Below are positions 12,576 through 57,066 of a stretch of DNA of 64,000 bases, piece after piece (positions within the stretch are counted from its first letter, which is position 1; the number at the start of each line of letters is the position of its first letter). The notes below the pieces were generated by a model, which was given only the letters and a program-made list of their open reading frames with translations, was not told where the DNA came from and made no database searches. The stretch is from contig NC_135830.1 of the NCBI RefSeq assembly GCF_964213995.1, positions 6,262,001-6,326,000 on the forward strand, written 5' to 3'. Source of the DNA: Mustelus asterias (lineage: Eukaryota). The position numbers were made by a program, and so were the translations under genes.

Positions 12576-12930
12576 GGGGACGCGGTGGTATAGTGGTATC
12601 GTCACTGGACTAGCAATCCAGAGACCCAGGGTGATCCTCTGGGAACCCAGGTTCAAATTCCAGCGCGGCAGATGGTGAAATTTGAATTCAATAAAAATAT
12701 GGAATTAAATGTCTGATGATGACCATGAAACCATTGTCAATTGTTGTAAAAACCCATCTGGTTCACCATCTGATCCTTTAGGGAAGGAAATCTGCCATCC
12801 TTACCCGGTCTGGCCTACAATGTGACTCCAGATCCTCAGCAATGTGGTCGACTCTTAAATGCCCTCAGAGATGGGCAACAAATGCTGGCCCAGCCAGTGA
12901 CCCTCACATCCCATGGACGAATAAAAAAAG
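12576..12930 (+). mobile_element. Deu-domain SINE (SacSINE1-like)
   Basis: tRNA-like head; AAAAACCCATCTGGTTCAC...TTTAGGGAAGGAAATCTGCC...GGTCTGGCCTAC...GTGACTCCAGA core; GGGCAACAAATGCTGGCC tail and A-run. Confidence 0.75.
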
Positions 12931-16802: not shown

Positions 16803-17149
16803 GATCTAGAATGTAACCTCAATGGGAGGAGGAGAGTTGGGGTGGGGGAGAGGGCCTGGGTAAGACACTCTGTCACAAAGTCGGTGCAGACTTGATGGGC
16901 TGAATAGCCTCCTTCTGCACTGTAGGGATTCTATGAATGGACTCAAGGCTGGGTGAAGCATATTTTTAACCCACACGGGAGCCAAGGGTTACCAGTGGTG
17001 TGGGTATGCAGGGCAGGGTCAGGAAAGTTGTGTGCACACAAGCCATGATCTTGTTGAATTGAAAGTATTATTGATGGACCAAATGGCCTCTTCCTGATCC
17101 TAATTCTGATGTTCCTCTGATGGAGGGATACGTGGCCATGAGCAGATGG

Positions 17150-20100
17150 TGACCCTGAGCCCAGACCCGTCGCCACGTCCTGAGCCCGGGCCCGTCGCCG
17201 TGCCCTGAACCCGGGCCTGTCACCGCACCCTGAACCCAGGCCCCGAACCCAGGCCCATTACTGTGCCCTGAACCCGAGCCTGTCGCCGCGCCCTGAACCC
17301 AAGCCTGTCGCCGCGCCCTGAACCCGGGCCTGTCACCGCGCCCTGAACCTGGGCCTGTCACCGCGCCCTGAACCCAGGCCCCGAACCCGGGCCCATCACC
17401 GCGCCCTGAACCTGAGCCTGTTGCCGCGCCCTGAACCCAGGCCCATCACTGCGCCCTGAACCCGAGCCTGTCACCGTGCCCCGAACCCGGGCCTGTCGCC
17501 GCGCCCTGAACCCGAGCCTGTCACCGCGCCCTGAACCCGAGCCTGTCACCGTGCCCCGAACCCGGGCCTGTCGCCGCGCCCTGAACCCGGGCCTGTCGCC
17601 GCGCCCTGAACCCAGGCCTGTCACCGCGCCCTGAACCCGGGCCTGTCGCCGCGCCCTGAACCCAGGCCTGTCACCGTGCCCCGAACCCGGGCCTGTCGCC
17701 GCGCCCTGAACCCGGGCCTGTCACCGTGCCCCGAACCCGGGCCTGTCGCCGCGCCCTGAACCCGGGCCTGTCGCCGCGCCCTGAACCCGGGCCTGTCACC
17801 GCGCCCTGAACCCGGGCCCATCACCGCGCCCTGAACCCGGGCCCATCACCGCGCCCTGAACCTGAGCCTGTCGCCGCGCCCTGAACCTGGGCCTGTTACC
17901 GCGCCCTGAACCTGAGCCTTTCGCCGCGCCCTGAACCCGGGCCTGTTACCGCGCCCTGAACCCGAGCCCCGAACCTGGGCCCATCACCGTGCCCTGAACC
18001 CGAGCCTGTCGTCGCGCCCTGAACCCGAGCCTGTCGCCGCGTCCTGAACCCGAGCCTGTCGCCGCGTCCTGAACCCGAGCCTGTCACCGTGCCCTGAACC
18101 CGAGCCTGTCGTCGCGCCCTGAACCCGAGCCTGTCGCCGTGCCCTGAACCCGAGCCTGTCGCCACGTCCTGAACCCGAGCCTGTCGCCGCGTCCTGAACC
18201 CGAGCCTGTCGCTGCGCCCTGAACCCGAGCCTGTCGCCGTGCCCTGAACCCGGGCCTGTCACCGCACCCTGAACCCGGGCCTGTCACCGCGCCCTGAACC
18301 CGAGCCTGTCGCTGCGCCCTGAACCCGAGCCTGTCGCCGTGCCCTGAACCCGGGCCTGTCACCGCACCCTGAACCCGAGCCTGTCACCGCGCCCTGAACC
18401 CGAGCCTGTCGCCGCGCCCTGAACCCGAGCCTGTCACCGCGTCCTGAACCCGGGCCTGTCACCGCGTCCTGAACCCGGGCCTGTCACCGCGCCCTGAACC
18501 TGAGCCTGTCGCCGCGCCCTGAACCTGAGCCTGTCACCGCGCCCTGAACCCGGGCCCGTCACCGTGCCCTGAACCCGGGCCTGTCACCGCGCCCTGAACC
18601 TGAGCCTGTCGCCGCGCCCTGAACCTGAGCCTGTCGCCGCGCCCTGAACCCGAGCCTGTCGCCGTGCCCTGAACCCGAGCCTGTCGCCGCGCCCTGAACC
18701 CGAGCCTGTCGCCGCGCCCTGAACCCGAGCCTGTCGCCGTGCCCTGAACCCGAGCCTGTCGCCGCGCCCTGAACCCGAGCCTGTCGCCGCGCCCTGAACC
18801 CGAGCCTGTCGCCGCGTCCTGAACCCGAGCCTGTCGCCGTGCCCTGAACCCGAGCCTGTCGCCGCGCCCTGAACCCGAGCCTGTCGCCCTGCCCTGAACC
18901 CGAGCCTGTCGCCGCGCCCTGAACCCGAGCCTGTCGCCGCGCCCTGAACCCGAGCCTGTCGCCGCGTCCTGAACCCGAGCCTGTCGCCGCGTCCTGAACC
19001 CGAGCCTGTCGCCGCGCCCTGAACCCGAGCCTGTCGCCGCGTCCTGAACCCGGGCCTGTCACCGCGCCCTGAACCTGGGCCCCGAACCCGGGTCCTGAAC
19101 CCGGGCCCGTCACCGTGCCCTGAACCCGAGCCTGTCACCGTGCCCTGAACCCGAGCCTGTCACCGCGCCCTGAACCCGGGCCCGTCACCGTGCCCTGAAC
19201 CTGAGCCTGTCACCGCGCCCTGAACCCGGGCCCGTCACCGTGCCCTGAACCCGGGCCTGTCACCGCGCCCTGAACCCGAGCCTGTCACCGTGCCCTGAAC
19301 CCGAGCCTGTCACCGCGCCCTGAACCCGGGCCCGTCACCGTGCCCTGAACCTGAGCCTGTCACCGCGCCCTGAACCCGAGCCTGTCACCGTGCCCTGAAC
19401 CCGAGCCTGTCACCGCGCCCTGAACCCGGGCCCGTCACCGTGCCCTGAACCCGAGCCTGTCGCCGCGTCCTGAACCCGAGCCTGTCGCCGCGTCCTGAAC
19501 CCGAGCCTGTCGCCGTGCCCTGAACCCGGGCCCGTCACCGCGCCCTGAACCTGGGCCCCGAACCCGGGTCCTGAACCCGGGCCCGTCACCGTGCCCTGAA
19601 CCCGAGCCTGTCGCCGCGTCCCGAACCCGGGCCTTTCACCGCGCCCTGAACCCGGGCCCCGAACCCGGGCCCGTCACCGTGCCCTGAACCTGGGCCCCGA
19701 ACCCGGGTCCTGAACCCGGGCCTGTCACCGTGCCCTGAACCCGAGCCTGTCACCGCGCCCTGAACCCGGGCCCGTCACCGTGCCCTGAACCCGAGCCTGT
19801 CACCGCGCCCTGAACCCGGGCCCGTCACCGTGCCCTGAACCTGAGCCTGTCACCGCGCCCTGAACCCGGGCCCGTCACCGTGCCCTGAACCCGAGCCTGT
19901 CACCGCGCCCTGAACCCGGGCCCGTCACCGTGCCCTGAACCTGAGCCTGTCACCGCGCCCTGAACCCGGGCCCGTCACCGTGCCCTGAACCTGAGCCTGT
20001 CACCGCGCCCTGAACCCGGGCCCGTCACCGTGCCCTGAACCCGAGCCTGTCACCGCGCCCTGAACCCGGGCCCGTCACCGTGCCCTGAACCCGAGCCTGT

Positions 20101-21404
20101 CGCCGCGCCCTGAACCCGAGCCTGTCGCCGCGTCCTGAACCCGAGCCTGTCGCCGTGCCCTGAACCCGGGCCTGTCACCGCGCCCTGAACCTGGGCCCCG
20201 AACCCGGGTCCTGAACCCGGGCCCGTCACCGTGCCCTGAACCCGAGCCTGTCGCCGCGTCCTGAACCCGGGCCCGTCACCGCGCCCTGAACCTGGGCCCC
20301 GAACCCGGGTCCTGAACCCGGGCCCGTCACCGTGCCCTGAACCCGAGCCTGTCGCCGCGTCCCGAACCCGGGCCTTTCACCGCGCCCTGAACCCGGGCCC
20401 CGAACCCGGGCCTGTCACCGTGCCCTGAACCTGGGCCCCGAACCCGGGTCCTGAACCCGGGCCCGTCACCGTGCCCTGAACCTGGGCCCCGAACCCGGGT
20501 CCTGAACCCGGGCCTGTCACCGTGCCCTGAACCCGAGCCTGTCACCGCGCCCTGAACCCGGGCCCGTCACCGTGCCCTGAACCTGAGCCTGTCACCGCGC
20601 CCTGAACCCGGGCCCGTCACCGTGCCCTGAACCCGAGCCTGTCACCGCGCCCTGAACCCGGGCCCGTCACCGTGCCCTGAACCTGAGCCTGTCACCGCGC
20701 CCTGAACCCGGGCCCGTCACCGTGCCCTGAACCCGAGCCTGTCACCGCGCCCTGAACCCGGGCCCGTCACCGTGCCCTGAACCTGAGCCTGTCACCGCGC
20801 CCTGAACCCGGGCCCGTCACCGTGCCCTGAACCTGAGCCTGTCACCGCGCCCTGAACCCGGGCCCGTCACCGTGCCCTGAACCTGAGCCTGTCACCGCGC
20901 CCTGAACCCGGGCCCGTCACCGTGCCCTGAACCTGAGCCTGTCACCGCGCCCTGAACCCGGGCCCGTCACCGTGCCCTGAACCTGAGCCTGTCACCGCGC
21001 CCTGAACCCGGGCCCGTCACCGTGCCCTGAACCTGAGCCTGTCACCGCGCCCTGAACCCGGGCCCGTCACCGTGCCCTGAACCTGAGCCTGTCACCGCGC
21101 CCTGAACCCGGGCCCGTCACCGTGCCCTGAACCTGAGCCTGTCACCGCGCCCTGAACCCGGGCCCGTCACCGTGCCCTGAACCTGAGCCTGTCACCGCGC
21201 CCTGAACCCGGGCCCGTCACCGTGCCCTGAACCTGAGCCTGTCACCGCGCCCTGAACCCGGGCCCGTCACCGTGCCCTGAACCTGAGCCTGTCACCGCGC
21301 CCTGAACCCGGGCCCGTCACCGTGCCCTGAACCTGAGCCTGTCACCGCGCCCTGAACCCGGGCCCGTCACCGTGCCCTGAACCTGAGCCTGTCACCGCGC
21401 CCTG
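17150..21404. repeat. GC-rich 25-bp minisatellite (~170 units), with a 50-bp higher-order dimer in the distal ~0.9 kb
   Basis: Unit CCCTGAACCYGRGCCYGTCRCCGYG. The 25-aa period in the ORF track equals 3 units. Confidence 0.97.
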
Positions 21405-25442: not shown

Positions 25443-26056
25443 CTGACGTCACAATGGAATGGGTGGGGGTGTGATGTCACAATGGAATGGGTGAGGGTGT
25501 GATGTCACAATGGAATGGGTGAGGGTGTGACGTCACAATGGAATGGGCGATAGTGTGACGTCAATGGAATGGGCGATAGTGTGACGTCACAATGGAATGG
25601 GCGATAGTGTGACGTCACAATGGAATGGGTGAGGGTGGGACGTCACAATGGAATGGGCGAGGGTGGGACGTCACAATGGAATGGGCGAGGGTGGGACGTC
25701 ACAATGGAATGGGCGAGAGTGGGACGTCACAATGGAATGGGCGAGGGTGGGACGTCACAATGGAATGGGCGAGGGTGGGACGTCACAATGGAATGGGCGA
25801 GGGTGGGACGTCACAATGGAATGGGCGAGGGTGGGACGTCACAATGGAATGGGCGAGGGTGGGACGTCACAATGGAATGGGTGAGGGTGGGACGTCACAA
25901 TGGAATGGGTGAGGGTGGGACGTCACAATGGAATGGGAGAGGGTGTGACGTCACAATGGAAATGGGAGAGGGTGTGACGTCACAATGGAAATGGGAGAGG
26001 GTGTGACGTCACAATGGAATGGGCGATAGTGTGACGTCACAATGGAATGGGTGAGA
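25443..26056. repeat. 28-bp minisatellite, about 22 copies
   Basis: Unit GACGTCACAATGGAATGGGYGAGGGTGK. Confidence 0.95.
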
Positions 26057-27359: not shown

Positions 27360-27953
27360 TCCCTACAGTTGCTGCAAGTCCCCAATTTCCCCCAGAATGA
27401 GAAAAGAAATGGAAAGGGGGAAACATTGATTTCCTCCCAGATGTTGTCCAGAGGAGGAAGTTTCACTCTGAAGCTCATTGGACAACATCTGCATTGTGAC
27501 GGCACAATGGAGTCCTGCCTGAATCAGCCAATAGGAATCACTCTGCTCCGCGGTGATGTCTCCGGGTTCCAGTCCGCAGGCCTGGGCGCGTGGACCCGGG
27601 AGCCCCGCCCCCACCCATTGTTCCCCTCCCCCTGCACCTCCTCGAGCCAAGATTTCCAGGCAACCGGCTGACGGCTCCGGACAGAGCGAGAAGCCGCTCG
27701 GTGATCTCCCCCTCCCCCCGGCCCGGGACTGTAAATGTGCGGGGGAAGGGAAGCTGCGCATGTGCGGGGGAGAGAGGAAGCTGTGCATGTGCAGGGGAGA
27801 GCCCACCCTCTGATCTTCATGCTGAGGTGTTGACCAATGGGAAGAGTTGGAGGACCGGAAGGACTCTGGTCCTCCAGCCAATCAGAGCGTGGGCTTTGTG
27901 TGAATGAAGATTGATCTTCAGACAGACTCAAACCTCCTCCTGTCTCAAACATC
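27360..27953. promoter_or_regulatory. Bidirectional ZNF promoter with two divergent exon-1 sequences; inverted paralogue of 56200-56760
   Basis: Shared GAGGTGTTGACCAATGGGAAGA..GGAGGACCGGAAGGAC.CTGGTCCTCCAGCCAATCAG block, CCAAT and GC boxes, TGCGCATG. Confidence 0.75.
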
Positions 27954-28031: not shown

Positions 28032-28622
28032 TGGACTTGTTTCTCTGATACATCTGTGAGTAACACACTTTCTTTTTCCACCACAGTTTGTTCACAGGTT
28101 TTTGGCTTCCTGCAGGGAGGAAGGGAAGGGGGAAGGAAGGTGGGAGGTGAACGGTTGCCTGCCTGCCTGCCGCCTGGCCTGCCTGCCTCTGGAGGGTGTG
28201 CTCTCCCCGGAGGGAGGGAGGAAGAGAGGACGAGGAGTGACTGGAGAGGAGGGGGGGGCAAAGTCATTTCAGACTGTCTAATTTTTCCATCTGCAGTGGG
28301 GGGGGGGGGGGGGGGGGGCGGCGGGGGTGAAGATAACACAGACTTGAACTGTTTGCGCCCAACAGCGCCCCAAGACCCAAGTCCCCCACCCACTGCTGCT
28401 GACCCCAACACCGGCACCCCCTCCCCTCCTGACTGGGGCACCGGCCCCCCTCCGTGCCTTGTTGCTAGTCTTCCTCCTGCTCCTCTGACCTCCTCTCACT
28501 CCAGGGAGAGAGCACCTAGACCCCCATCCACCTACCCCACCCTCCCTTATTTTTCCCTCCTCTTATACACCCTGCCGTACATCTGGGCAGTCTCGGGGTG
28601 GGTGTAGCACTCCCTTGAAAGG

Positions 28623-29453
28623 ATGGCGACATCGCCAGCGTCGCCGGTGGCAGAGCCTTCTCGGCCCACCTATGCAGGCGTGGCGGCTGCCAGAGCCCCC
28701 GCCGCTCCCAAGGCCCTGCCGCCATTCTCTCTGATAACGAGACAGCTCGGGGTTAAGTGCTACGCCCACCCCGACATGTCTATCGAGGCCTGCGTCAAGG
28801 CAATGGCTGGGGTTGTCGGCCCCTCAGCCATTGTCGCGGCCTCAAAGATGTACGGCCGGGCCGTATTCTTTTTGAAGGCCGAGCAGGCGGTTCGCCTCGC
28901 CCTGGAGAGGGGGCTCACGGTGGGCGGGACGTTCCTGGCAGTGGACCCTTTGGAGGCCACCGCCCATAATATCATGATATCAAACGTCCCGCCCTTCCTA
29001 CCGAGTGAGCTCCTCCTCCCCCACCTCCATCTACTGGGGGAGGTCAGGTCCGGGGTGCAGCCGATCCCGCTCGGCCTTAGGGACCCCTCCCTGCGCCACA
29101 TATACTCCTTCCGGCGCCAGGTCTTTGTCCGCCTGGCCCGGGAGGAGGAACTGGAGGGAGGTTTCAGTATCCCCCATGAGGGGACCACGTATCGGGTCTT
29201 TTGGTCCGCGGACGGTGTGCGGTGCCATGCCTGTAAGGAGGCGGGGCACGTGCGGAAAAACTGCCCCGTCTCCAAGGCCGCCGACCGCCAACCCAAGGCA
29301 GCCGCAGCTGGCACCACAGCCCCCTCTCCCCCCAAACCAGTACCATCTGCCCCCCGCGAGGGGAGGCCACGCCGGCAGCAGCTGCCACCTCAGCTGCCGG
29401 CAGGGGGGGAGCGGAGCCTCCGCGTGGCCAAAAGGCCCAGAAGGGCGCAATAA
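28623..29453 (+). CDS. Tx1-type ORF1 (gag-like RNA-binding protein with CCHC knuckle); frameshifted low-complexity tail continues to ~30070
   Basis: VGPSAIVAASKM..AVFFL, ISNVPPFL, SFRRQVFV and CHACKEAGHVRKNC are typical Tx1 ORF1 motifs. Confidence 0.85.
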   Translation: MATSPASPVAEPSRPTYAGVAAARAPAAPKALPPFSLITRQLGVKCYAHPDMSIEACVKAMAGVVGPSAIVAASKMYGRAVFFLKAEQAVRLALERGLTVGGTFLAVDPLEATAHNIMISNVPPFLPSELLLPHLHLLGEVRSGVQPIPLGLRDPSLRHIYSFRRQVFVRLAREEELEGGFSIPHEGTTYRVFWSADGVRCHACKEAGHVRKNCPVSKAADRQPKAAAAGTTAPSPPKPVPSAPREGRPRRQQLPPQLPAGGERSLRVAKRPRRAQ

Positions 29454-30074
29454 AAAAGAAGGGGGGTACCGGGACCCCGGCCCCCAAGAAAGACACCCCA
29501 ACCACCCCGGCAGCCGGCTCGGGGACTGCCTCAGTCTCCACCTGCGCCCCCCCCCCCCCACCACCATCTGCCGGGCCCGTGGGCTCTCCGGGGCCAAGTG
29601 CTGGGTCCGGCGCTGCGGATGCCCAGGATCATGGGCCCGAGCATGGGGGGGGTTAGCGACCCCGAGCCGGCAAAACTGGCGACACCGCCACCTCGGGGGG
29701 ACGTGATGGGGGGTCAGGGGGGGTGCGGCAAGGCGAAGAGGGGCCTCACTTGCCCGAGAGCAGGTTAACAAAAAGAGGCGAGGCCCCTCGGGCACCGTAG
29801 AGTTCGAGGTCTGCGTGCCCCTCCCCCCTTGTGAGTCATCTCCTGCCGTGCCCCCACCTGTCTTTGTGCCTTGTCCCCAGAAAAAAGGGGGCAAGGCACC
29901 CTGTAAATCCAAGCATGTGCTGCCTCAGTCCCCCGGCGAGGAGTCTCCGGGGCCGGGTGGCAGCGGGGCCCCCACGGTTCCGTTCCACCCGGCCGGTTAC
30001 AACCCAGAGTTCTTCTTTAGCATGTCAGGGGACTGGGGCAACACCCCAATGTTCGTGTCCCTATCATCAGGTGG

Positions 30075-32235
30075 TCCACGGGAGGAGGCCAAGTGGGTGA
30101 CGGCCAGGAAGGGTAAAGCTCGGGTGATTGAGAGCACCCCGGTGGATGTGCCCCTACACAACAAGTACTCCTGCCTGAGTACTGTTGGGAGGGACAGCCC
30201 ACCTGGGGGAAGCAGCAGTGGCCGTGTCTCCGGGGTGGAGTCCGGCCCTGTAACTCAGAGGGCTAAAGAAAAGAGGGGAAGGCAGTATTAATCGGGGACT
30301 CGGCAGTCAGGGGGACGGACAGGCGATTTTGCGGAGGCAGGCGGGAGTCTCGCATGGTGGTCTGCCTCCCTGGGGCTGGGATTCAGGATGTCGCTGGGCG
30401 AGTCCCAGAAATCCTGAGGGGGGAGGGAGAGGAGCCGGAGGTAGCGGTACATATTGGTACCGCTGATGTGGGAAGGAAGGGGGAAGGGGTCATGAAAAAA
30501 GAGTATAGGGAATTAGGGAGACAGCTGAGGAGGAGGAAAGCAAAGGTAGTAATCTCAGGATTGCTGCCTGTGCCACGGGAAGGCGAGGACAGGAATGGAA
30601 TGAGGTGGAGGATGAATATGTGGCTGAGGGGCTGGTGCAGGGATTCAGGTTCCTGGACCATTGGGACCTCTTCAGGGGCAGGTGTGGCCTGCACACAAAA
30701 AATGGGTGGCACTTGAATCCCAGGGGAACCAATATCCTGGCAGGAAGGTTGGCTAAGGCTACTGGGGAGAGTTTAAACTCAATAGGTTGGGGGGAGGGGA
30801 TCAGAGTGAGGAAGTTAGCTCACAAACAGAGAAGGGTTATAGGCAGTGCAAGAGGATGGATGGACAGGGAATAGAGAAGGGGAGAGCTCAGACCAAAGGA
30901 TTGAGATGTGTTTACTTCAATGCCAGGAGTATAGTGAATAAAGGGGATGAGCTCAGAGAGTGGATCGATGCCTGGAAGTATGATGTGGTGGCCATTACGG
31001 AGACTTGGATGTCTCAGGGACAGGACTGAATACTCCAGGTGCCGGGATTCAGATGTTTCAGGAAGGACAGGGAGGGAGGCAAGAGAGGGGGTGGAGTGGC
31101 ACTGCTGATCAGGGATAGTGTCACAGCTTTAGAGAAGGTGTATGCTGTGGAGGGATTGTCCACCGAGTCTCTGTGGGTGGAGGTACAGAGTGCAAAGGGG
31201 CCGGTCACTTTGCTGGGAGTTTTCTATAGGCCGCCTAATAGTAACAGGGAGGTGGAGGAGCAGATAGGGTAACAGATCCTGGAGAGATGCAGTAATAGCA
31301 GAGTTGTTGTGATGGGAGACTTTAATTTCCCAAACATAGATTGGAATATCCCGAGGGTAAGGGGATTGGATGGGGAAGAGTTCATTAGGTGTTCAGGAGG
31401 GTTTCCTGACACAGCATGTGGACAAGCCTACTAGAGGAGAGGCTGTACTTGATCTGATACTGACCAATGAACCTGGACAGGTGTCAGATCTCTGTGGGAG
31501 AGCATCTTGGGGATAGCGATCATAACTCTATCTCCTTTAGGCTTGCATTAGAAAAAGAGGGGATCAGGCAAGCCAGGAAAGTGTTTATATGGAGTAAGGG
31601 GAAATATGAAGACATTAGACAGCAAATTAGAGGAGTAAATTGGAAGGAGGTATTCTCGGGGAAATGTACTGAAGAGAGGTGGCAGTTTTTCAAGGAATGT
31701 CTGTCTAGAGTTCTACAGAACAACGTTCCGAGCAGACAGGGAGGTGTTGGTCGGTTAAAGGAACCATGGTGCACGAAAGCTGTGCGGGACCTAGTCGAGA
31801 AGAAAAGGAAAGCGTACAAAAGACTCAGAGCTTGGCGAAGATAGGGATTTAGAAGAGTATACGACTTGTAGGAAGGGACTAAAGAAGGAAATTAGGAGAG
31901 CCAGAAGGGGTCACGAGAAGGCCCTGGCAGGTAGGATTAAGGAGAACCCTAAGGCGTTCTATAAATATGTGAAGAGTAAAAGGATGAGACGTGATGGAAT
32001 AGGGCCTATTAAAGGTGAAGGCGGGAAAATCTGTACAGAACCAGTAGAAATGGCAGAGGTGCTCAATGAGTATTTTGCCTCGGTTTTCAGAGAAGGACCT
32101 GGGTGGATGTACTGCGGGCTTGTGGTGGACTGAAAAGATTGAGTATGTGGGCTTTAAGAAAGAGGTTGTGCTGGAATCTTTGAATGGCATCAAGACAGAT
32201 AAGTCGCTGGGTCCGGATGGGATGTACCCCAGGTT
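30075..32235 (+). mobile_element. CR1 fragment: ORF1 esterase plus ORF2 endonuclease/linker, decayed
   Basis: VVCLPGA, VHIGT, VISGLLP (SGNH-like), then YFNARS, ITETW, GVFYRPP, GDFNFP. Confidence 0.9.
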
Positions 32236-32239
32236 CCTC

Positions 32240-34300
32240 GGCCTGGGGAGGTTTGTTGCTGGCTTTAAAAAGGGATTGCCTTGGAGGTTTCAGCCTCTGT
32301 TCCACAGAGAGAGCTGAGGGTAAGAGAGAGTGTTTTTTAGTGGAGATTTATTTATTTTTCAGTTAATTTTGTGCGTAAAATCGGAGGTTTTTTTTTTCAA
32401 AACCGGAAGTAGGCCTGGGGAGGTTTGTTGCTGGCTTTAAAAGGCAGGCAGCACTTACGAGCGGGCAGTGGAGCAAGTGAAGTAGAGTGGCAGCTGTCAG
32501 GGCTTTGGCTCACAGGGCTTGTGGGAAGCAGAGTGAGAGCTGTCAGGGCTTTGGCTCAGAGGGCTTAGGCGGTAAGGGCGAGGCAGGGCAAGTTATTTTT
32601 ATCCAAACCTATATAGGAAAAGGGTAACTATGAATGATAGGCCAGTTCTGTGCTTCCAGTGTGGGATGTGGGAGTTCCTGGAAACACCTAGCCTCCCGGG
32701 AGGACCACATTTGCGCCAGGTGCGTGGAACTGCAGCTCCTGAGGGACCGTGTCACAGAACTGGAGCTGCAGATTGCTGACCTTGGTCAAGTCAGGGAGAA
32801 TGAGAATAATTGACACGAGTTATAGGGAACTAGTTACACCGGGGCATCGGGAGGAAGACACGTGGGTCACAGTTAGGAGGAGTAAAGGTCAGAAGGGTAA
32901 TGTACCAGAGAGTATTCCAGTGGCTGTCTCTCATAATAGGAAGGGCTCGGCGACAGGTGTGAGAGGGGAGGGGAGTGAGCAATTAGTGGAGGGGTCACCT
33001 GTGGTTGTCCCACTCCAAAACAAGTATATTGTTTTGGATAGTGTGGAGGAGGATGACTCTCCAGGGGTAAGCCACAGTGACCAGGTCACTGGCACAGAGT
33101 CAGGCTCTGTGGCCCGGAAAGGAAAGAGAGGGGTTAGGAGACAAATAGTGGTGGGGGATGCGTCGGTTAGAGGCACGGACAGGCGATTCTGTGGGTGCAA
33201 ACGGGACTCCAGGATGGTAGTCTGCCTACCTGGTGCTGGGGTACTGGATGTCTCCAAGCGGATAGGAGGCATCTTAAAAAGCGGAAGATAAAGAAACGGA
33301 TGTCATTGTACACATTGGTGCAAATGACGTAGAAAGGAAGAGCAGGGGGATCCTACGAGAGCAATTCAGGGAGTTGGGAAATAGACTAAAAAGTAGGGCC
33401 TCCAGGGTGGCCATCTCTGGGCTGCTCCCAATGCCTCGTGCCAGTGAGGCTAAGAATAGGGAGTTAGTACAATTGAATGCTTGGCTAAAGGACTGGTCCA
33501 GGAGGGAGGGCTTCATTTTCCTAGTTCAATGGGAAGTTTTCAGGAGAGGATGGCACCTGTACAAGGAGGACGGGTCACAACTAAGTTGGAAGGGCACGAA
33601 TATCCTGGCTGGGAGTTTTGCTAGTGCAGTTCGGGGGGGTTTAAACTAGTATGGCAGGGGGGTGGGGATCAAAATATTAGGTCTACAAGTGTAGAGACTG
33701 GGGACGAGATTGGGGCTGGGACAAGGCTGGCAAAGAAGAAGTGCACTCTGGGGGAGGATGACCTCACTGGGCCTGGAGGTCTGGAGTGCTTATACTTCAA
33801 TGCAAGGAGCGTAGCAGGTAAGACAGACGAACTGAGGGCCTTAATGCTCACGAGGAATTTGGATGTGGTTGCAGTGACAGAGACTTGGTTGAAAGAGGGA
33901 CAGGACTGGCAGCTGAACATTCCAGGGTACAAGTGTTTTAGGTGAGACAGAGGAGGGGCCAAAAGAGGTGGGGGAGTAGCAGTATTAGTTGGAGAGCATA
34001 TTACAGCGGTGCAGAGGGAGGACAATTCAGAGGGGTTGTGTAACAAGTCACTCTGGGTGGAGCTTAGAAACAGGAAGGGTGCAGTCACTATGTTGGGAGT
34101 ATACTACAGGCCCCCCAACAGCCCAAGGGAAGTGGAAGAACGGATATGTCAGGAGATACTGGATAGGTGCAGGAAAAATAGGGTGGTTGTAGTGGGAGAC
34201 TTCAATTTCCCTGGTATAAACTGGAAATCGCTGAGAGCAGGGATTCTGAATGGGGAGGAATTTGTGAAATGCGTACAGGAGAGTTCTTTGGAACAATATG
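32240..34300 (+). mobile_element. CR1 5' half: 5' UTR, ORF1 and endonuclease start
   Basis: Highly similar to 34560-36370; frameshifted. Confidence 0.9.
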
Positions 34301-37300
34301 GCAGGGGGGTGGGGATCGACCTCTTTGTTTGACTGGAGTGAGACTGGGGGAGAGAGTCTTAGCAGGAGTGCTGAGAGTAAGCAAAGAAGTGATTTAATTA
34401 TTCATTTATGGGTATTCCTAGTATATTTTGCAGGCTTTTTTCAGGGTTTTGAATTGAGGAAGTGAGGTCAGCTGAAAGGGATTCTGGGAGGTTGAGTCTT
34501 AGTATAAAAGGCAGTTACCTGGGGGGTTCGCCGGGAGCATAAAAAGCCGGCTGCACTATACAGCGGGCAGCATCGGGAGCGGGCAGTGGAGTGAGTGGGT
34601 AGCAGAGTGTGAACTATAAGGGTTTTGGCTCACAGGGCTTAGGCTGAAAGGGCGAGGCAAGGCTAGTTATTTTTTACCCAACCCTATAAAGGATAAGGGC
34701 AGGTATGAGTGATCGGCCAGTTCAGTGCTTCCGATGTGGGATGTGGGAGTTCCTGCAAACACCTAGCTTCCCAGAGGTTCACATATGTGCCAGGTGCGTG
34801 GAACTGCAGCTCTTGAGGGACCGTGTCATGGAACTGGAGCTGCAGATCGCTGACCTTAGTCTAGTCAGGGAAAATGGGAGAAAAATTGACAGGAGTTATA
34901 GGCAACTAGTTACACCGGGGCATCGGGAGAATGACACGTGGGTCACAGTTAGGAGGAGTAAAGGACAGAAGGGTAAAGTACAAGGGAGGACTCCAGTGGT
35001 GGTCTCTCAAAATAGGAAGGGCTTGGTGACAGGTGTGAGAGGGGAGGGGAGTGAACAGTTAGAGGAGGGGTCACCTGTGGTTGTCCCACTCCAAAACAGG
35101 TACATTGTTTTAGATAGTGTGGAGGAGTGTGCCTCTCCAGGGGTAAGACACAGTGACCAGGTCACTGGCACACAGTCAGGCTCTGTGGCCCGGAAAGGGA
35201 AGAGAGGGGTTAGGAGAGCGATAGTGGTGGGGGATGCATCAGTTAGAGGCAGACAGGCGATTCTGTGGGGGCGAACGGGACTCCAGGATGGTAGTCTGCC
35301 TACCTGGTGCTGGGGTCACGGATGTCTCCGAGCGGATAGCAGGCATATTAAAAGGGGAAGATAAAGAAACAGATGTCATTATACACATTGGTGGAAATGA
35401 CGTAGATAGGAAGAGTCGGGGGGTCCTAAGAGAGCAATTCAGGGAGTTGGGAAATAGGTTAAAAAGTAGGGTCACTAGGGTGGCAATCTCTGGGCTGCTC
35501 CCAATGCCTCGTGCCAGTGAGGCGAAGAATAGGGAGTTGGTACAAATGAATGCCTGGCTAAAGGACTGGTCCAGGAGGGAGGGCTTCATTTTCCTAGATC
35601 AATGGGAGGTTTTCAGGAGAGGATGGCACCTGTACAAGAGGGAGGGGTCACAACTAAGTTGGAAGGGCACAAATATCCTGGCTGGGAGCTTTGCTAGTGC
35701 AGTTCGGGGGGGTTTAAACTAGTATGGCAGGGGGGTGGGGATCAAACTATTAGGTCTATAAGTGTGGAGGCTGGGGACGAGCTTGGGGCTGGGACAAGGC
35801 TGGCAAAGAAGAAGAGCACTCTGGGGGAGGACGACCTCACTGAGCCTGGAGGTCTGGAGTGCTTATACTTCAATGCAAGGAGCGTAGCAGGTAAGACAGA
35901 CGAACTTGGGGCCTTAATGCGCACGAGGAATTTGGATGTGGTTGCGGTGACAGAGACTTGGTTGAAAGAGGGACAGGACTGGCAGCTGAATATTCCAGGG
36001 TACAAGTGTTTTAGGCGAGACAGAGGAGGGGCCAAAAGAGGTGGGGGAGTAGCGGTATTAGTTGGAGAGCATATTACAGCGGTGCAGAGGGAGGACAATT
36101 CAGAGGGGTCGTGTAACGAGTCACTCTGGGTGGAGCTTAGAAACAGGAAAGGCGCAGTCACTATGTTGGGGGTGTACTACAGGCCCCCCAACAGCCCAAG
36201 GGAAGTGGAAGAATGGATATGTCAGGAGATACTGGATAGGTGCAGGAAAAATAGGGTTGTTGTAGTGGGAGACTTCAATTTCCCTGGTATAGACTGGAAA
36301 TCGCTGAGGGCAGGTACTCTGGATGGGGAGGAATTTGTAAAATGTGTACTGGAGGGTTCGTTGGAACAATATGTAGACAGCCCGACTAGAGAGGGGGCTA
36401 TACTGGACCTGGTACTGGGGAATGAGCCCGGTCAGGTCTTCAAAGTTTTGGTAGGGGAACATGTGACAAATAGGGACCACAATTCTGTTAGCTTTAGGAT
36501 AGTGATGGAAAAGGATGAGTGGTGTCCCAAGGGTAAGGTGTTGGATTGGAGGAAGGCTAACTTTAGTGGGATTATGCAGAAATTGGCAGCTGTTGATTGG
36601 GAGAGGCTGTTTGAGGATAAATCCACATCTGGCATGTGGGAGTCTTTTAAGGAACAGTTGTTAGGGCCACAGGACAGGCATGTGCCTGTAAAAAAGGATT
36701 GGATTCGAGAACTGTGGATAACCAGGGAAATTGAGGGACTGGTCAAAAAGAAAAAGAGGCGCATGTTAGATCCAGGCAGCTAAAAACAGAGGGAGCTCTG
36801 GAGGAATACAAAGAAAATAGGAAAGAACTCAAACGGGGAATTAGAAGGGCAAAAAGGGGTCACGAAATGTCCTTGGCAGACAGGATTAAGGAGAATCCAA
36901 AGGCATTTTATTCATACGTTAGGAACAAAAGGGTTGTCAGGGGGAAAAAAAAAAATCAGACCTCAGGGACAAAAGTGGGGAATTATGCTTGGAGCCCAAA
37001 GAAGTAGGGGAGATCCTAAATGAATACTTTGCGTCGGTATTCACAATGGAGAGGGATGTGTTGACTGGGAGTGTCTCAGAGGGGAGTGTTGAACCGTTGG
37101 AGAAAATCTCCATTACAAGGGAGGAAGTGTTAGGTTTGTTAGAGAATATAAAGACTGACAAATCCCCAGGGCCTGATGGAATCTATCCAAGGCTGCTCAG
37201 GGAGACGAGAGATGAAATCGCTGGGCCTCTGACGCAAATCTTTGTCTCGTCACTGGGCACAGGCGAGGTCCCAGAGGATTGGAGGATAGCTAATGTGGTC

Positions 37301-38640
37301 CTGTTAGTTAACCCGGGTAATTATAGGCCGGTGAGCTTGACGTCCGTGGTGGGGAAGTTGTTGGAGAAGATTCTTAGAGATAGGATGTATGTGCATTTAG
37401 AAAGGAATAAACTCATTAACGATAGTCAGCATGGTTTTGAGAGAAGGAGGTCATGCCTCACTAACCTGGTGGAGTTTTTTGAAGAAGTGACCAGAATGGT
37501 TGACGAGGGAAGGGCCGTGGATGCCATCTATATGGACTTTAATAAAGCATTTGACAAAGTCCCTCATGGTAGGTTGGTGAAAAAGGTTGGATCTCATGGG
37601 ATAAAGGGGGAGGTGGCTAGATGGGTGGAGAACTGGCTTGGTCACAGAAGACAGAGGGTGGTAGTGGAAGGGTCTTTTTCCGGCTGGAGGCCTGTGACTA
37701 GTGGTGTTCCGCAGGGCTCTGTATTGGGACCTCTGCTGTTTGTGATTTATATAAACGATCTGGAAGAAGGTGTAACTAGGGTGATCAGTAAGTTTGTGGA
37801 CGACACAAAATTGGCAGGACTTGCAGATAGTGAGGAGCATTGTCAGAGGCTACAGAAGGATATAGATAGGCTGGAAATTTGGGCAAAGAAATGGCAGATG
37901 GAGTTCAATCCTGATGAATGCGAAGTGATCCATTTTGGTAGAAATAATGTAAGGAGGAACCATAATGGGTGTAGATATGCAGAGGGACCTGGGTGTGCAA
38001 GTCCACAGATCCTTGAAGGTGACGTCACTGGTGGAGAAGGTGGTGAAGGCGGCATATGGCAAGTTGGGGTCTGATGTTGCAGATGTATAGAACGTTGGTT
38101 CGGCTGCATTTGGAATAATGTGTCCAGTTCTGGTTGCCACACTACCAGAAGGACATGGAGGCTTTGGAGAGAGCACAGAGGAGGTTTACCAGGATGTTGC
38201 TTGGTATGGAGGGGGGCTTAGTTATGAGGAGAGATTGGGTAAACTGGGGTTGTTCTCCCTGGAAAGATGGAGGATGAGGGGAGACTTAATAGAGGTGTAT
38301 AACATTATGAAAAGGCATAGATAGGGTAAACGCTGGGAAGCTTTTCCCCAGGTCGGTGGTGACGTTCACGAGGGGTCATAGGTTCAAGGTGAAGGGGGGG
38401 GGCGGTTTAACACAGATATCAGAAGGACATATTTTACAGAGGGTGGTGGGGGCCTGGAATGCACTGCTAGGCAAGGTGGTGGAGGCAGACACACTGGTAA
38501 CGTTTAAGACTTATCTAGATAGCCACATGAACGGAGTGGGAATGGAGGGATACAAAAGAATGGTCTAGTTTGGACCAGGGAGCGGCACGGGCTTGGGGGG
38601 CCGAAGGGCCTGTTCTTGTGCTGTATTGTTCTTTGTTCTG
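34300..38640 (+). mobile_element. Near full-length CR1 (HER1-like) LINE, frameshifted
   Basis: ORF1 zinc-finger/leucine zipper (34705-) and esterase (to 35722); APE endonuclease (35764-36783); RT (36989-38074); tail GTATTGTTCTTTGTTCT. Confidence 0.95.
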
Positions 38641-38789
38641 TGGGAGACGAGGGAAGAAATTGCAGAGCCTCTGGCGATGATCTTTGCGTCGTCGATGGAG
38701 ACGGGAGAGGTGCCGGAGGATTGCAGATGTGGTTCCTATTTTCAAGGGGAATAGGGATAGCCCAGCTAATTACCGACCGGTGAGTCTAA

Positions 38790-39535
38790 CCTGGCTGTTC
38801 ACTGGAAAACTCATTCGGTTGTGTGTGTGTCTGTGCTTTTCCACGGGGCCGGCCATCCGGCACACGGCCAAAGCCATCCCAGACCTTAGGACGGTCGTGC
38901 TCGGCCCCGAAACTGCACGCAAACTCGAGGCGGCGCAGGCGTGCGGTGGGATCCCGCCCGAGCGTTGGCCGGCCTTTTTGCCGCCGGGTGGCGGAGGTCC
39001 CCGCTGGAGGTCCCTCTACGGAGGGATCTCCCCCAATTACGTCGGGGACCTGGGGTGGAGGGTGATGCATGCAGCAGTTCCGCACAACCGTAGGATTCAC
39101 TGGTTCACGGGCTCCGAAGACTGCCCTTTCTGTGGCCTTGTGGAGTCCGTGGACCATGTCTATGTTTTGTGTCTTCGGCTGCACTCCCTTTATGTTTTCC
39201 TGAAGAACCTTTTATTGATGTTCTGTTTGCACTTCAGTCCCACGCTCCTGATCTACGGACACCCGGTGCGGAGAGGGGAGGGTCAGGATGGCGACCTCCT
39301 CGTGAACCTGCTCCTGGGCCTGGCGAAACGTGCCATTTACCGGTCCAGGCAGCGGGCGATCGAGGGGGCCGTCCATCCTGACTGTCTGCCCCTCTACCGC
39401 AGCTATGTTCGCAGCCAGGTGTCCCTGGAGAGGGAGCATGCGGTGTCCACGGGCAAGGTTGACACCTTCCGCGTCCGTTGGGCACCGCAGGGGTTGGGGT
39501 GCATTATTGACCCTAATAATCACATTTTAATTTGA
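38790..39535 (+). pseudogene. Tx1 ORF2 C-terminus (RT-associated zinc-binding region)
   Basis: WRSLY...GDLGWRVMHAAV...CPFCGLVESVDHVYVLC.RL...NLLLGLAKRAIYRSR. Confidence 0.85.
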
Positions 39536-39684
39536 TGTTTAAGTTTCCTTTGTACTTTGATTTCTGTTCGGGCTGTTCCCCCTCCTTCTGGGGAGCTGCC
39601 CCTTTTACTTTGTCCTGATTTAACCCGAGTTTGTTTATTTGGTTTGACCTAAAAAGAGCCCAACATCTGTGAGTAACACACTTT

Positions 39685-40021
39685 AGAGCTTGCTTGCTGG
39701 AGACGCCCGTTTTCTATCGTTTCTGCCGATTTGTTGGCTTCCTGCAAGGAGGGAGGAAGGGGGAGGAAGGTGAGCTATCGCCTGCCTGCCTGCCGTCTGC
39801 TGGAGGGTGCTCTCTCCCTGGAGGGAGAGAGGGAAAGAGGACACGGAGACACTTTCTTTGTTTACTTTTTTCCACCGACGGGAGGGAAGACTGCACAGCC
39901 TCCTCGTATCAACATCAGGGGACTGAGTGGGGCTGATGCCCTCATCAGAAGGTCGGTGCCTGAAAGGGAGGTTTGCGGGGGGGAGAAAATTTAGACTGTT
40001 TTCCATCTGCAGTGGGTGGGT

Positions 40022-40052
<31 letters not shown>

Positions 40053-40195
40053 GAAGACACCCTGGACTTAGTTTGCGCCCAAGAGAGCTGGAAGAGTAAA
40101 GTCCCCCCACCCACTGCTGCTGCCCCCAACACCGACACCCACCCCCCCTCCCCCCTCCTTCCTCCTGACTGGGGCACCGGCCCTCCTCAGTGCCC
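39685..40195 (+). mobile_element. Second Tx1-type element, 5' UTR only, starting directly after the target copy
   Basis: Colinear homology to 28072-28460: TTGGCTTCCTGCA, GCCTGCCTGCC, TTTTCCATCTGCAGT-polyG-TGAAGA, CCTCCTGACTGGGGCACCGGCCC. Confidence 0.8.
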
Positions 40196-40624
40196 TGTCC
40201 CTTGGGTGCGATCTACACCTGCGTCCTTGCAGATTGCCACTTTACTGAAACCCGGGAATGGCGGTGATCCGCTTCGCTCCCAAAACAGGTGCAATGGCGA
40301 TTTAAATTGAATTAATGAACTGCCCGCCCAACTTTCAGCATTTCCCCCTTTACCACCCCGTTTGCCAATCCGGAACCGCGCCGTAATGGACCTGCTCAAT
40401 AAAAGTCTGAATCGGGGCTCCAGCTTCTGAAGAGTGCGTTCAGTGTTTCCAACGGCTCTCTGACTCAGATCAGTGGTGTGGGGGGGGGGGGGGGCGGGGG
40501 AGGAGGGTCAGATCATTCTCTGGTTGTGGGGGGGGGGGGTGGAGGGTCAGATCATTCTCTGGTTGGGGGGGGGTGGAGGAGGAGGACGATCGGTCTGGGT
40601 AACGGGGTGGTGGGGGGGAGGGTG

Positions 40625-47360: not shown

Positions 47361-47800
47361 GCTCAGCCACTGGAGGATGGTTCACATCAGAGGATGGGGG
47401 AGGGGGACAATAAATAAGAGGTTACACTTTGGCCTCAAATCAATGAGGACTCTGATCTCTGGGAAGGAAGGAAACCCTGGGAGGTGGGCGGGGAGGATTC
47501 ACAAACACCCGCTGGAGGCCCCAACACCCCCAATAAGACCCATTGGTTTTATTGTCAGTCTGCAGACAGGAGCTGGAGAACTGAACACAGACAGAGGAGA
47601 GGGAGGGAGAAAACTGGGAGTGGAGGAAAAGAAATGGTGAGATGGGTTTGGATTTCAGCCCAGGGAGGAGGGAGAGTGTGTGGGACAGGGAATTACAGAT
47701 TTGGGGGAACAAGGGAGGAAAAAATGATCCAGAGAAACAAGAATTGTCTGTTTTGATTTGTTTTCCTACACTGACAGTGATTTTGTAAACTTCTTTTGCA

Positions 47801-53450: not shown

Positions 53451-54377
53451 TCACTCGTGAACTTGTTGGTGTCTCAATAGGGCAGATGAAACACTGAATG
53501 CCTTCCCACATTGAGAGCAGACGAATGGCCTCTCCCCTGTGTGAACTCGCTGGTGTTTCTGCAGGCTGGATGAGTCAGTGAATCTCTTTCCACAATGAGG
53601 GCAGGTGAATGGCCTCTCCCCAGTGTGAATTCGCAGGTGTTTCTGCAAGTTGGATAAGTCAGTGAATTCCTTCCCACACTGAGAGCAGGTGAACGGTTTC
53701 TCCCCAGTGTGAACTCGCTGGTGTATCTGCAGGATGGATAATTGAGTGAATCGTTCCCCACATTGAGAGCAGGTGAACGGTTTCTCCCCAGTGTGAACTC
53801 GCTGGTGTGTCCGCAGGTGGGATGACTGAGTGAATCCCTCCCCACACTGAGGGCAGGTGAATGGCCTCTCCCCAGTGTGAACTCGGTGGTGTGTCTGCAA
53901 GCTGGATAACTGACTGAATCCCTCCCCACACTGAGAGCAGGTGAATGGTCTCTCCCCAGTGTGAACTCGCTGGTGTGTCCGTAGGTTGGATAACTGACTG
54001 AATCCCTTCGCACACTGAGAACAGGTGAATGGTCTCTCCCCAGTGTGAACTCGCTGGTGTGTCCGCAGGCTGGATGACAGAGTGAATCCCTTCCCACACT
54101 GAGAGCAGCTGAATGGCCTCTCCCCAGTGTGAACTCGCTGGTGTGTCCGCAGGTTGGAAAACTGACTGAATCCCTTCCCACACTGAGGGCAGGCGAACGG
54201 TCTCTCCCCAGTGTGAACTTGCTGGTGTCTCTGCAGTCTGGATGATAAAGTGAATCCCTTCCCACACACAGAGCAGGTGAACGGCCTCTCCCCAGTGTGG
54301 CTGCGCCGATGAATTTCCAGATCAGATGGAGCTTTGAATCCTTTCCCACAGTCCCCACATTTCCACGGTTTCTCCAT
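53451..54377 (-). CDS. Tandem C2H2 zinc-finger protein, 11 fingers, no KRAB domain seen
   Basis: Intact ORF from ACCATGG ([14 protein letters not shown]) with 11 fingers and canonical linkers. Acceptor TTTTACAG at ~54720. Confidence 0.92.
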
Positions 54378-54989
54378 GGTGCGGGTGTCCTTGTGACTCT
54401 CCAGGTTAAACAATCAGTTAAAACTCACACAGAACACAAGTACAGTCTCTCCCCACTGAATGCTGCGATGTATTTTCGGGCTGTGTATCTGGTTAAAGCT
54501 TTTTCCTCAGTGCACTGGAACACTCTCAATTGAGTGTGTCTGTGTCTTGGTGCTTTTCCAGTGATGCTGATGTTTAAAATCTTCTCTCGCAGACAGAACA
54601 GAGAAACATTTCTCCTTCTAGATTCAAAGGCTGATGATATTCAGGTCCAGATGAATTGAGTGACTCTGTCAGTTATTTGGTTTGAGATTTCTGTCTGTAA
54701 ATCTTCACCTTCTGATATCCTGTAAAAGGAGTTTATAAAAGCCATCAGTGTCAGTGCAGGATAGAAATTCAGAACAGACAGTTCTAGTTTCTATGGAACA
54801 TTCTTTCCTCTCTCATTCCCCAAAAGCTGTGAATCTCCATCCCACACACTCTCCCTTCATTCTCACTCTGCTGTATCTAATATTCACCCTCCCAATTCTC
54901 CTGAAGGTACTGATTGAGGCTGATTGACAGATCCATGCTCACTGCTTTCTGTCCAGCACAGAAATCAGAACATAAAGGAGCTGCAATCA

Positions 54990-55338: not shown

Positions 55339-55915
55339 CAGATGTACCTGAGCACCATTTTCCCCACAGTATCCCCTGGATCCCTTGATATCTTGAATAA
55401 ACCGATCAAACCCTCACTTGAAAATTCTTGATGACTGAGCTTTACAGTCCTCTGAGGTAAAGAATTCCAAAACTTCACCACATCCTTGAGTGAAGAAATC
55501 CCACCTCATCTTCGCTTTCTTTCCAAATAAATGTACTTTATTGCAGGACCATAAATAAAATCTAATCTGTACAATAGAACAAAACTAGACATATCTCTGT
55601 CCTATATTAGTTTATTGTTCCCTTAAATGTCAGCCATCTCCGGTGGAAACCAGCCTTTAAATGTGAACATCAGGAAAGAGACCATCCTTTTAGCCAGATA
55701 AATAAATGAGTCAAGCTGAGGAAGCAAAGGATGTCAATGTCTTTAAGAGAGAGACCTGGGCCAACCTTTCCTGAGTCTGCAGCCTCCCTGGATTCACTTC
55801 CTTTCCCTTCAGTTGCTGCAAGTCCCCAATTTCCCCCAGAATGAGAAAAGAAATGGAAAGGGGTGGGGGGGGGGGGGGGGGGGGGGGGAGAAAGTGTGTT
55901 ACTCACAGATGTTGG

Positions 55916-56033
55916 CCTCTTTTAAGGTCAAACCAAATAAACAAACTCAAATTAAATCGGGACAAAGTAAAAGGGGCAGCTCCCCAAAAGGAGGGGGAGC
56001 AGCCAGAACAGAAATCAAAGTACAAAGGAAAAA
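55916..56033 (-). mobile_element. 5'-truncated Tx1 3' UTR, same family as 39545-39659
   Basis: Minus strand TTTCCTTTGTACTTTGATTTCTGTTC...GAGTTTGTTTATTTGGTTTGACCTTAAAAAGAG, followed by CCAACATCTGTGAGTAACACACTTT. Confidence 0.9.
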
Positions 56034-56045
56034 GCGAGATGTTGG

Positions 56046-56207
56046 TCTCTTTTAAGGAAATAAGTGATAAATAAGTTATCCGCCAGAGTTCGATGTCATC
56101 TGACCGCTTGTTTGGAGAATAAAACATACTTAGGTACCTCGCTTCATCTGGGATATGAAGCATAATCCTCAGAAGTGTGATTCATGTCATCTAAAATAAC
56201 TCACTTC
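56046..56207 (-). mobile_element. Possible second short insertion at the same target
   Basis: Ends CCTTAAAAGAGA, followed by CCAACATCT (56037-56045). The body is not recognisable. Confidence 0.5.
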
Positions 56208-56665
56208 AGACAGGAGGAAGTTTCAGTCTGTGTGCAGCTCAATCTGAGCGTCACAAAGACCTGATTGGCTGGAGGACCAGTGTCCTTCCGGTCCTCCAGG
56301 TCTTCCCATTGGTCAACACCTCAGTATGTAGGTCAGGATGCGGGCTACCCCGCTCATGCGCAGTGTCCCATTTCCCCGGACATGCGCAGTCCCGGGCCGG
56401 GGGAAATCTCCAAGCGGCTTCTCGCTCCCGCCAGCCGGCTGTCTGCAAACCTTGGCTCGAAGATGTGCAGGGGGAGGGGGAACAATAGGTGGGGGCGGAG
56501 CTCCCGGGTCCTCGCGCCTGCGCACTGGAACCCCATGACGTAATTGCGGAAGAGACTGATTCTTATTGGGTCATTCAGGCAGGCTCCATTGTGGACGTCA
56601 CAATGCGGAAGCTCGATTGATTCAGATTCAGACTCAAAACTTCCTCTGTACAACATCTGGGAGGA
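56200..56665. promoter_or_regulatory. Bidirectional CpG promoter and exon 1s for the ZNF genes at 53.4 kb (minus) and 57.2 kb (plus)
   Basis: Head-to-head layout with CCAAT boxes, a GC box, CATGCGCA x2 and GGACGTCACAATG; paralogous to 27360-27953. Confidence 0.75.
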
Positions 56666-57066
56666 AATCAATGTTTCCCCCTTTCCATTTCTTTTCTCAT
56701 TCTGGGGGGAATTGGGGACTTGCAGCAACTGAAGGGAAAGGAAGTGAATCCAGGGAGGCTGCAGACTCTGGAAAGGTTGGCCCAGGTTTCTCTCTTTCTT
56801 AAAGACATTGGCATTCTTTGCAGTGTTCCACATCAATTAGAATTGTCTGATCTGAATTTCTATCTTGTTCTGACAGTGATGACTTTTGTAAATTTGTTTT
56901 ACAGGATATTAGAAGGAGAGGATTTGCTGATAGAAATGTCAAGATCTAAGTCACTCAATTCATGGGAGCTGAATGTCATCGGTTTTGAATCTGGAAGAAG
57001 AAACGTTTATCTGCTTGAATTCGGTGAACCATTGGTGTGAACAGAAAAGCATCGAGGCCCGTGCAA

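Follow-up and report, generated by a model that had tools for sequence, protein, structure and literature searches.

Does a LINE that inserts beside the first splice donor of a protein-coding gene leave a donor in front of itself, so that it can be removed with the intron? The question is raised by a cluster of C2H2 zinc-finger genes, probably of a shark, in the window (the whole stretch of DNA analysed here, 64,000 nt on contig C71), in which a sequence containing GTGAGT lies on both sides of a long insert. A preliminary description, made from the letters alone, had taken this repeat for a target-site duplication that regenerates the donor. Genome-wide counts given below refer to the 3.68-Gb genome; labels beginning with C denote contigs and those beginning with L denote loci.

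The host gene model comes from 20 empty paralogues: a GC-rich bidirectional promoter with CCAAT boxes is followed by a short non-coding exon 1, an intron and a single coding exon. In the empty genes exon 1 ends in CCAACATCT, followed by the donor GTGAGTAAAACAC and the intron, and a homologue of the acceptor lies 0.3-3.2 kb 3' of the donor in 18 of the 20. The GTGAGT hexamer by itself is uninformative (46 copies within the window). A 19-mer spanning the donor occurs genome-wide in 877 copies in its AAA form and 42 in its AAC form (reversed controls, 0 each), and the family comprises at least 877 donor sites. For the preliminary description to hold, GTGAGT would have to be used as a donor in some paralogue, and such use is seen in run X2, from related organism B (RNA status assumed): at the empty paralogue L253 the predicted 398-nt GT..AG intron is missing, precisely to its ends, from one contig, and in five further contigs the loose ends at the donor consist of exon-2 letters. 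The 398-nt joint at L253 was not found among the matches listed for runs X1, X4 and X20. In the host family, native CATCT|GTGAGT is thus a functional U2-type donor: one related organism splices it to the exon-2 acceptor in an empty gene.

Locus 1, on the plus strand, is laid out as follows.

27560-27953, plus strand: zinc-finger promoter and non-coding exon 1, one arm of the bidirectional promoter, ending in CTGTCTCAAACATC; 76% alike to 56749-56205, with the exon-1 end found in the empty loci L102 and L104
27948-27953, plus strand: AACATC, probably the true 5' copy of the duplicated target (8 bp if one mismatch is allowed), matched at 39662-39667 and ending before GT; suggested by the same geometry in L302 and L304
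27961-28031, plus strand: tRNA-derived head of the Tx1 leader (Rfam tRNA, 41.6 bits; read by ARAGORN as Phe-GAA), which we take to be valine-like
28050-28071, plus strand: copy of the end of host exon 1 and its donor, carried by the element, with GTGAGT at 28056-28061; 29 of 32 distinct heads have a GTGAGTA-like site
28099-28115, plus strand: competing acceptor-like site, a pyrimidine run and CAG 60 nt 3' of the carried donor
28072-30060, plus strand: Tx1 5' UTR and ORF1 (start codon ATG at 28623, frame closed by a stop at 29453); matches bases 503-2368 of the intact 7,068-nt unit at 87%
30061-38843, plus strand: LINE sequence (GDSL/OSK, endonuclease, RT) in place of the Tx1 endonuclease and RT, with three sense AATAAA; presumably CR1-like, from its domain set
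38844-39660, plus strand: Tx1 3' end, comprising the ORF2 C-terminus (residues 1112-1304 at 93%) and 3' UTR
39661-39684, plus strand: target, the exon-1 end CAACATCT and donor GTGAGT (39669-39674)
39685-40200, plus strand: 5' UTR fragment of a second, older Tx1

The 5' end of the locus-1 element is approximate, not placed to the base, and the insert as a whole carries four AATAAA. Sequence search recovered GTGAGT where the preliminary description had put it at both loci, at 28056 and 39669 on the plus strand and at 56199-56204 on the minus strand, and recovered it also at 55901-55906 (minus); the 21-mer ACATCTGTGAGTAACACACTT occurs at 28050 and 39663 (plus) and at 55892-55912 (minus). Both divergent partner genes, at 56651-56666 (plus) and 27431-27446 (minus), have the exon-1 end CAACATCT followed by GGGAGG, with no GT; compared with the weaker donor GTGAGG of paralogues, these are likely dead donors.

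On similarity, the locus-1 insert is a Tx1 LINE. The intact copy L195:4356-8264 has a 1,303-aa ORF2 with endonuclease and RT (PF03372, PF00078), the RT region of which (P0032) is 61% identical to Xenopus laevis Tx1L (YTX2_XENLA) over the whole RT length (E 4e-138); L1 ORF2p is the best PDB match of this ORF2. An APE-type endonuclease together with an RT nearest Tx1L puts the copy in the Tx1 clade, an assignment made by similarity and not by tree, and both 5'-truncated copies and target-site duplications were found. The window's own copy, judged by its coding capacity, is dead: 8.8 kb of CR1-like DNA stands in place of the last part of ORF1 and the greater part of ORF2, and neither PF03372 nor PF00078 is left. 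On the plus strand 3' of 39684 no intron-1 homologue or cognate exon 2 was found; the second Tx1 fragment and a minus-strand gene lie there instead, and the next plus-strand acceptor, near 47800, leads to a broken exon. With no cognate exon 2 behind the element, there is no cognate host mRNA to rescue at this locus.

The insertion point recurs across the genome. Directly after the Tx1 3' end, the target follows in sense, reading CATCTGTGAG, in 199 of 1,980 exact 3' UTR matches (10%, with subfamilies pooled and counts inflated by duplicated contigs), and the antisense mirror pattern occurs 0 times. The 3' junction falls at the motif (G)CCAA or (G)GCAA, which precedes the donor by 9-10 bases. 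The preliminary description had all inserts in sense just behind a housekeeping-type promoter, and this is borne out, the promoters being those of zinc-finger genes. The endonuclease probably nicks at this motif, and strand-specific nicking would account for the sense orientation without selection. The available text of PMC4494074 calls a Tx1 element target-specific when >20% of its flanks fall in one sequence type; the 10% share at the exact donor-adjacent site is a pooled figure, and a second exon-1 site ~50 bp upstream stands outside that count. This second site (GAGG|TCTCT..GAATG) is occupied by 7.1-kb Tx1 units arrayed head to tail, in some of which ORF2 is intact (L191-L194 on C75, L195-L196 on C91, L201 and L209), each unit opening with a diverged copy of exon 1. 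A sister Tx1 subfamily with another 3' tail has inserted repeatedly into one other repeat family on C1 (L134-L138, L148, L150), with shared flanks and 15-18-bp duplications.

If each insertion duplicated about 22 bp including the donor, every insert would be intronic, and the perfect 22-bp direct repeat flanking the locus-1 insert is what this model predicts. However, the sequence at 28050-28071 belongs to the leader in other Tx1 copies and is not a target-site duplication. The loci examined contain 85 tRNA-like heads, collapsing to 32 distinct sequences; the head is followed by the Tx1 UTR motif in 30 of the 32 and by the native intron in none. Behind 29 of the 32 lies a GTGAGTA-like site, the bases before which have drifted to T-runs in many. 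In L302 a 10-11-bp duplication with the locus-specific end CATCA is followed by the head, GTGAGTAATGC, a 7-kb Tx1, native GTGAGGAAATC, the intron and exon 2, a layout repeated in L304, L308 and L303. In both L302 and L308 the carried donor and the native donor of the locus read differently, so that in L302 the upstream donor is no copy of the local one. On this comparison of copies, the donor in front of the window's Tx1 came in with the element, as part of its 5' leader. The locus-1 head is 90% alike to that of L280/L304 and is followed by similar UTR letters. Paralogues of locus 1 on C109 and C128 share its 3' half but have different heads, implying that heads are also exchanged by recombination.

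The same paralogues lack the 22-bp repeat, and 22 bp is longer than the duplications of off-target copies of this Tx1 subfamily (10-18 bp in 6 of 16, none in 10 of 16). Heads carry a donor whatever the local target. The duplication model fares better where duplications do reach GTGAG, as they do before the head in L303 and L310 and in a minority of short inserts. By hand count, the upstream donor is duplicated in 6 of 18 short-insert events, those with a visible exon-1-side junction; most of the 40 filled loci are left out of this count, their 5' junction lying outside the examined stretch or in other repeats. The six comprise L078, L083 and L081 (GTGAGT), L100/L123 and L237 (GTGAGA) and L217 (GTGAGG). 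In the other 12 (L061, L076, L086, L093, L117, L186, L209, L239, L248, L250 and two locus-2 inserts) the donor is not duplicated. A nick 9-10 nt before the donor means that only duplications of at least 11 nt copy the GT. Short inserts without an upstream donor would likely sit in the non-coding exon 1 and lengthen it. The short inserts and the element-borne donors refute a 22-bp duplication as a general rule, and as an account of this system we consider it very unlikely. The claim that each insertion leaves a donor 5' of itself, and so is intronic, survives in part: the donor is real and is duplicated in a third of these short-insert events, but the remainder have no duplicated donor and the donor of full-length copies is element-borne.

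The exon-1 site collects other sequences as well, among them chimeric small-RNA retrocopies. Pieces derived from tRNA and ending in a short stretch of Tx1 have inserted there in L100, L103, L121, L123, L186, L188 and L237 (Rfam tRNA matches in L100 and L237). A second insert family is present in L081, L055-L059, L089, L105 and L120; in L081 ~1.3 kb lies between exon 1 and the target, with the tail AAAGAAACC, and the duplication of this family takes in the donor, which L081 has kept intact and L055-L059 have in mutated form. In L061:1520-1600 (C12) the donor site is followed immediately by a sequence for which Rfam made no call; we take it to start like the 5' end of U2 snRNA and to be a possible SINEU-like insert outside crocodilians.

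Locus 2 (minus strand) adds a case in which a donor stands in front of short inserts.

56199-56204, minus strand: GTGAGT at the 5' junction of the inserts, present in one clade of 7 copies; GGGAGT in 17
56046-56207, minus strand: ~160-nt insert ending in a Tx1 tail, with six ATGs; 20 exact copies of its inner 26-mer, on contigs of this paralogue set
55916-56036, minus strand: Tx1 3' stub flanked by CCAACATCT at 56037-56045 and 55907-55915, a 9-bp duplication ending just before GT
55901-55906, minus strand: native exon-1 donor, downstream of both inserts and followed by family intron 1; the homologous donor is spliced in run X2
53451-54719, minus strand: exon 2, acceptor AG at 54721-54720, with an open 11-finger ORF

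No Rfam family matches the ~160-nt insert, and its source was found neither by Rfam nor by the genome-wide 26-mer search. No RNA data set was listed as containing the locus-2 stretch, which says nothing about its expression. The stub's duplication, which stops before GT, is a further point against the 22-bp model. GAA|GTGAGT at 56199-56204 lies where the preliminary description placed it, but neither its origin by duplication nor its generality holds up: the GTGAGT replaces the exon-1 end at the 5' junction, and of 24 paralogues that share these inserts 17 have GGGAGT instead. A tree of the locus-2 paralogues separates GT from GG copies at 100/100 (23 filled rows and one empty, with L036, which has no downstream donor, left out; the tree does not give the ancestral state). 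The downstream ORF is intact as described, a 308-aa frame with 11 C2H2 fingers open from the ATG at 54377 to 53451. However, the GG paralogue L225, without an upstream GT, keeps an open 8-finger ORF, and exon 1 is non-coding, so an intact finger ORF is no evidence that the insert is spliced out. If exonic, the 298-nt locus-2 insert would add six upstream ATGs, and for this reason a gained donor could be useful. Across all loci a long finger ORF is kept in 25 of 40 filled and 15 of 20 empty genes (Fisher p=0.39, the copies not being independent). On C12 and C23, a subset picked after seeing the data, the figures are 2 of 10 and 9 of 14 (Fisher p=0.047), and the smaller number of long ORFs at filled genes there fits poor rescue.

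Tx1 inserts in sense just upstream of the exon-1 donor of zinc-finger genes, this native donor is used in one related organism, and a donor is part of the element's leader. Given these observations, we think it probable that most full-length copies bring their own donor behind a tRNA head, which would allow them to be spliced out with intron 1, whereas most short inserts examined, having no donor in front, would likely make exon 1 longer. Full-length copies might in this way leave the host message as part of intron 1, via the carried donor; neither AATAAA nor ATTAAA occurs in sense in the intact 7,068-nt unit, and this lack would help transcripts to run on as far as the host acceptor. The acceptor-like AGs inside the leader could compete with that acceptor. 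A single origin of the leader is likely, in a filled exon-1 site where a tRNA retro-insert, the exon end and the donor were co-transcribed from the host promoter. This origin is suggested by the older heads L289 and L310, which keep exon-end letters before the donor, and by the tRNA retro-inserts with Tx1 tails at the site (L100, L237); a diverged copy of exon 1 at the start of young elements is in keeping with their being transcribed from the host promoter.

In a more far-reaching form of the same idea, the element would be a self-intronising LINE: the host donor was captured and is kept under selection, the insertion is removed with intron 1, unspliced host-promoter transcripts supply element RNA, and the tRNA-like fold, with its free anticodon, is an RNase P-like release signal comparable to the R2 ribozyme. 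We regard this as doubtful. Against either form stands that young copies with a full-length or near-intact ORF2 (C91, C71, C145) have most of the tRNA and the carried donor deleted and keep only a later GAG|GTGAGC, implying that the donor is dispensable for mobility.

The carried donor may instead serve the element. U1 has a role in transcription; U1 binding near the promoter could aid full-length transcription, or the donor could open a short intron within the 5' UTR, as in human L1. We hold this to be possible, although we would not call it probable. The leader does contain acceptor-like sites, the second of which, CATCTGCAG, is widespread; the window's element keeps its donor despite having no cognate exon 2 behind it, and the smaller share of filled genes with a surviving ORF on C12 and C23 points the same way. 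Human L1 has functional donors and acceptors in its 5' UTR, according to the available part of PMC5860796. However, the first acceptor-like site in the leader reads AG in only 8 of the 22 distinct leaders matched, and GG or GA in 14. At the site before ORF1, the 20 other copies in which it could be located all have GG. No clear spliced retrocopy was recognised among the 32 heads (L311 and L312 are ambiguous), and a search with one pattern, CAACATCT|GATAT, too tight to be informative, gave 0 matches. A crude U1-match score did not separate candidate donors. The CAG at 28504 was considered as a family acceptor and rejected; all 20 other copies with the site read CGG, and the site was not found in five.

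A third possibility is that the carried donor is merely left over from an old filled site, a neutral fossil that retrotransposition, segmental duplication and recombination have spread and that is tolerated through redundancy and the non-coding nature of exon 1. The loss of the donor from active-looking copies, the swapping of heads among paralogues, the open ORF of L225 without an upstream GT and the size of the host family are all in keeping with it. Against this, the donor core is present in 29 of the 32 heads, whereas the columns just upstream agree in only 15-19 of these 29, a difference that is partly built in by anchoring the alignment on that core. The tRNA stems also still pair: 97.3% of 620 cells retain cloverleaf pairing, 3 of 20 pairs have changed on both sides, and the anticodon loop varies, although related rows can exceed shuffles without selection. 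We consider a neutral fossil unlikely, and the donor core was likely kept by selection for U1 binding.

Several features of the favoured reading, insertion of Tx1 before the exon-1 donor with a donor of its own in the leader, have counterparts in known systems. Xenopus laevis Tx1L and the rest of the Tx1 clade (Keno, Kibi, Koshi, Tx1-Mar) likewise have two ORFs with endonuclease and RT, and the accessible portions of PMC4494074 and PMC6719617 describe multicopy target preference, tandem stacking at the target and borrowed transcription as already known in the clade. Whereas the targets named there are snRNA and rRNA genes, microsatellites, satellites and other transposons, the present element goes to the end of exon 1 in a family of protein-coding genes, and with partial specificity (the 199 of 1,980 3' ends, subfamilies pooled).

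Introners resemble the present element in that a splice signal is brought by the element or co-opted from the duplication (PMC11282704, available text), and ~5% of classified introners are non-LTR elements (PMC12130899, likewise in its available text). Unlike an introner, which makes a new intron with both splice sites from the element or the duplication, the Tx1 element, as far as its sequence tells, would move an existing donor upstream and leave the tRNA head in exon 1; it would rely on the acceptor that the host already has, without requiring one at the Tx1 3' end. The system works partly like an introner but is not classed as one, because no new intron is made. The 5' UTR donors and SpIREs of human L1 are alike in being a leader of the L1 clade with a donor and nearby acceptors (PMC5860796, in the part available); here, however, the donor is a captured copy of that of the host target, and none of the copies could be identified as a spliced retrocopy. 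SINEU with Tx1-Mar in crocodilians and R2 co-transcription share with this system small-RNA heads made by template switching, target-captured 5' extensions and transcription from flanking DNA (PMC4494074, in the sections available). The difference is that here the autonomous LINE is what bears the small-RNA head, and a splice donor with it.

In the open-access literature searched we found no description of a LINE carrying the donor of its target gene; Repbase and supplements lie outside that search and may bear on novelty. A LINE at the first splice donor of a protein-coding family, with a spare donor of its own, would link target-specific retrotransposition and introner biology in a vertebrate, and its copies would provide hundreds of natural replicates for how donor choice splits transcripts between host and parasite. 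The locus also suggests that an apparent long target duplication can be a captured target carried by the element.

Other features of the window include a GC-rich 25-bp satellite of ~4.3 kb (17070-21404) and a 28-bp tandem repeat of ~22 copies (25445-26055) containing GACGTCACAATG, a motif that is also found in the partner-gene promoter at 56595. At 12578-12671 ARAGORN calls a tRNA-Ala that Rfam does not support at its gathering score and that is probably the head of a SINE.
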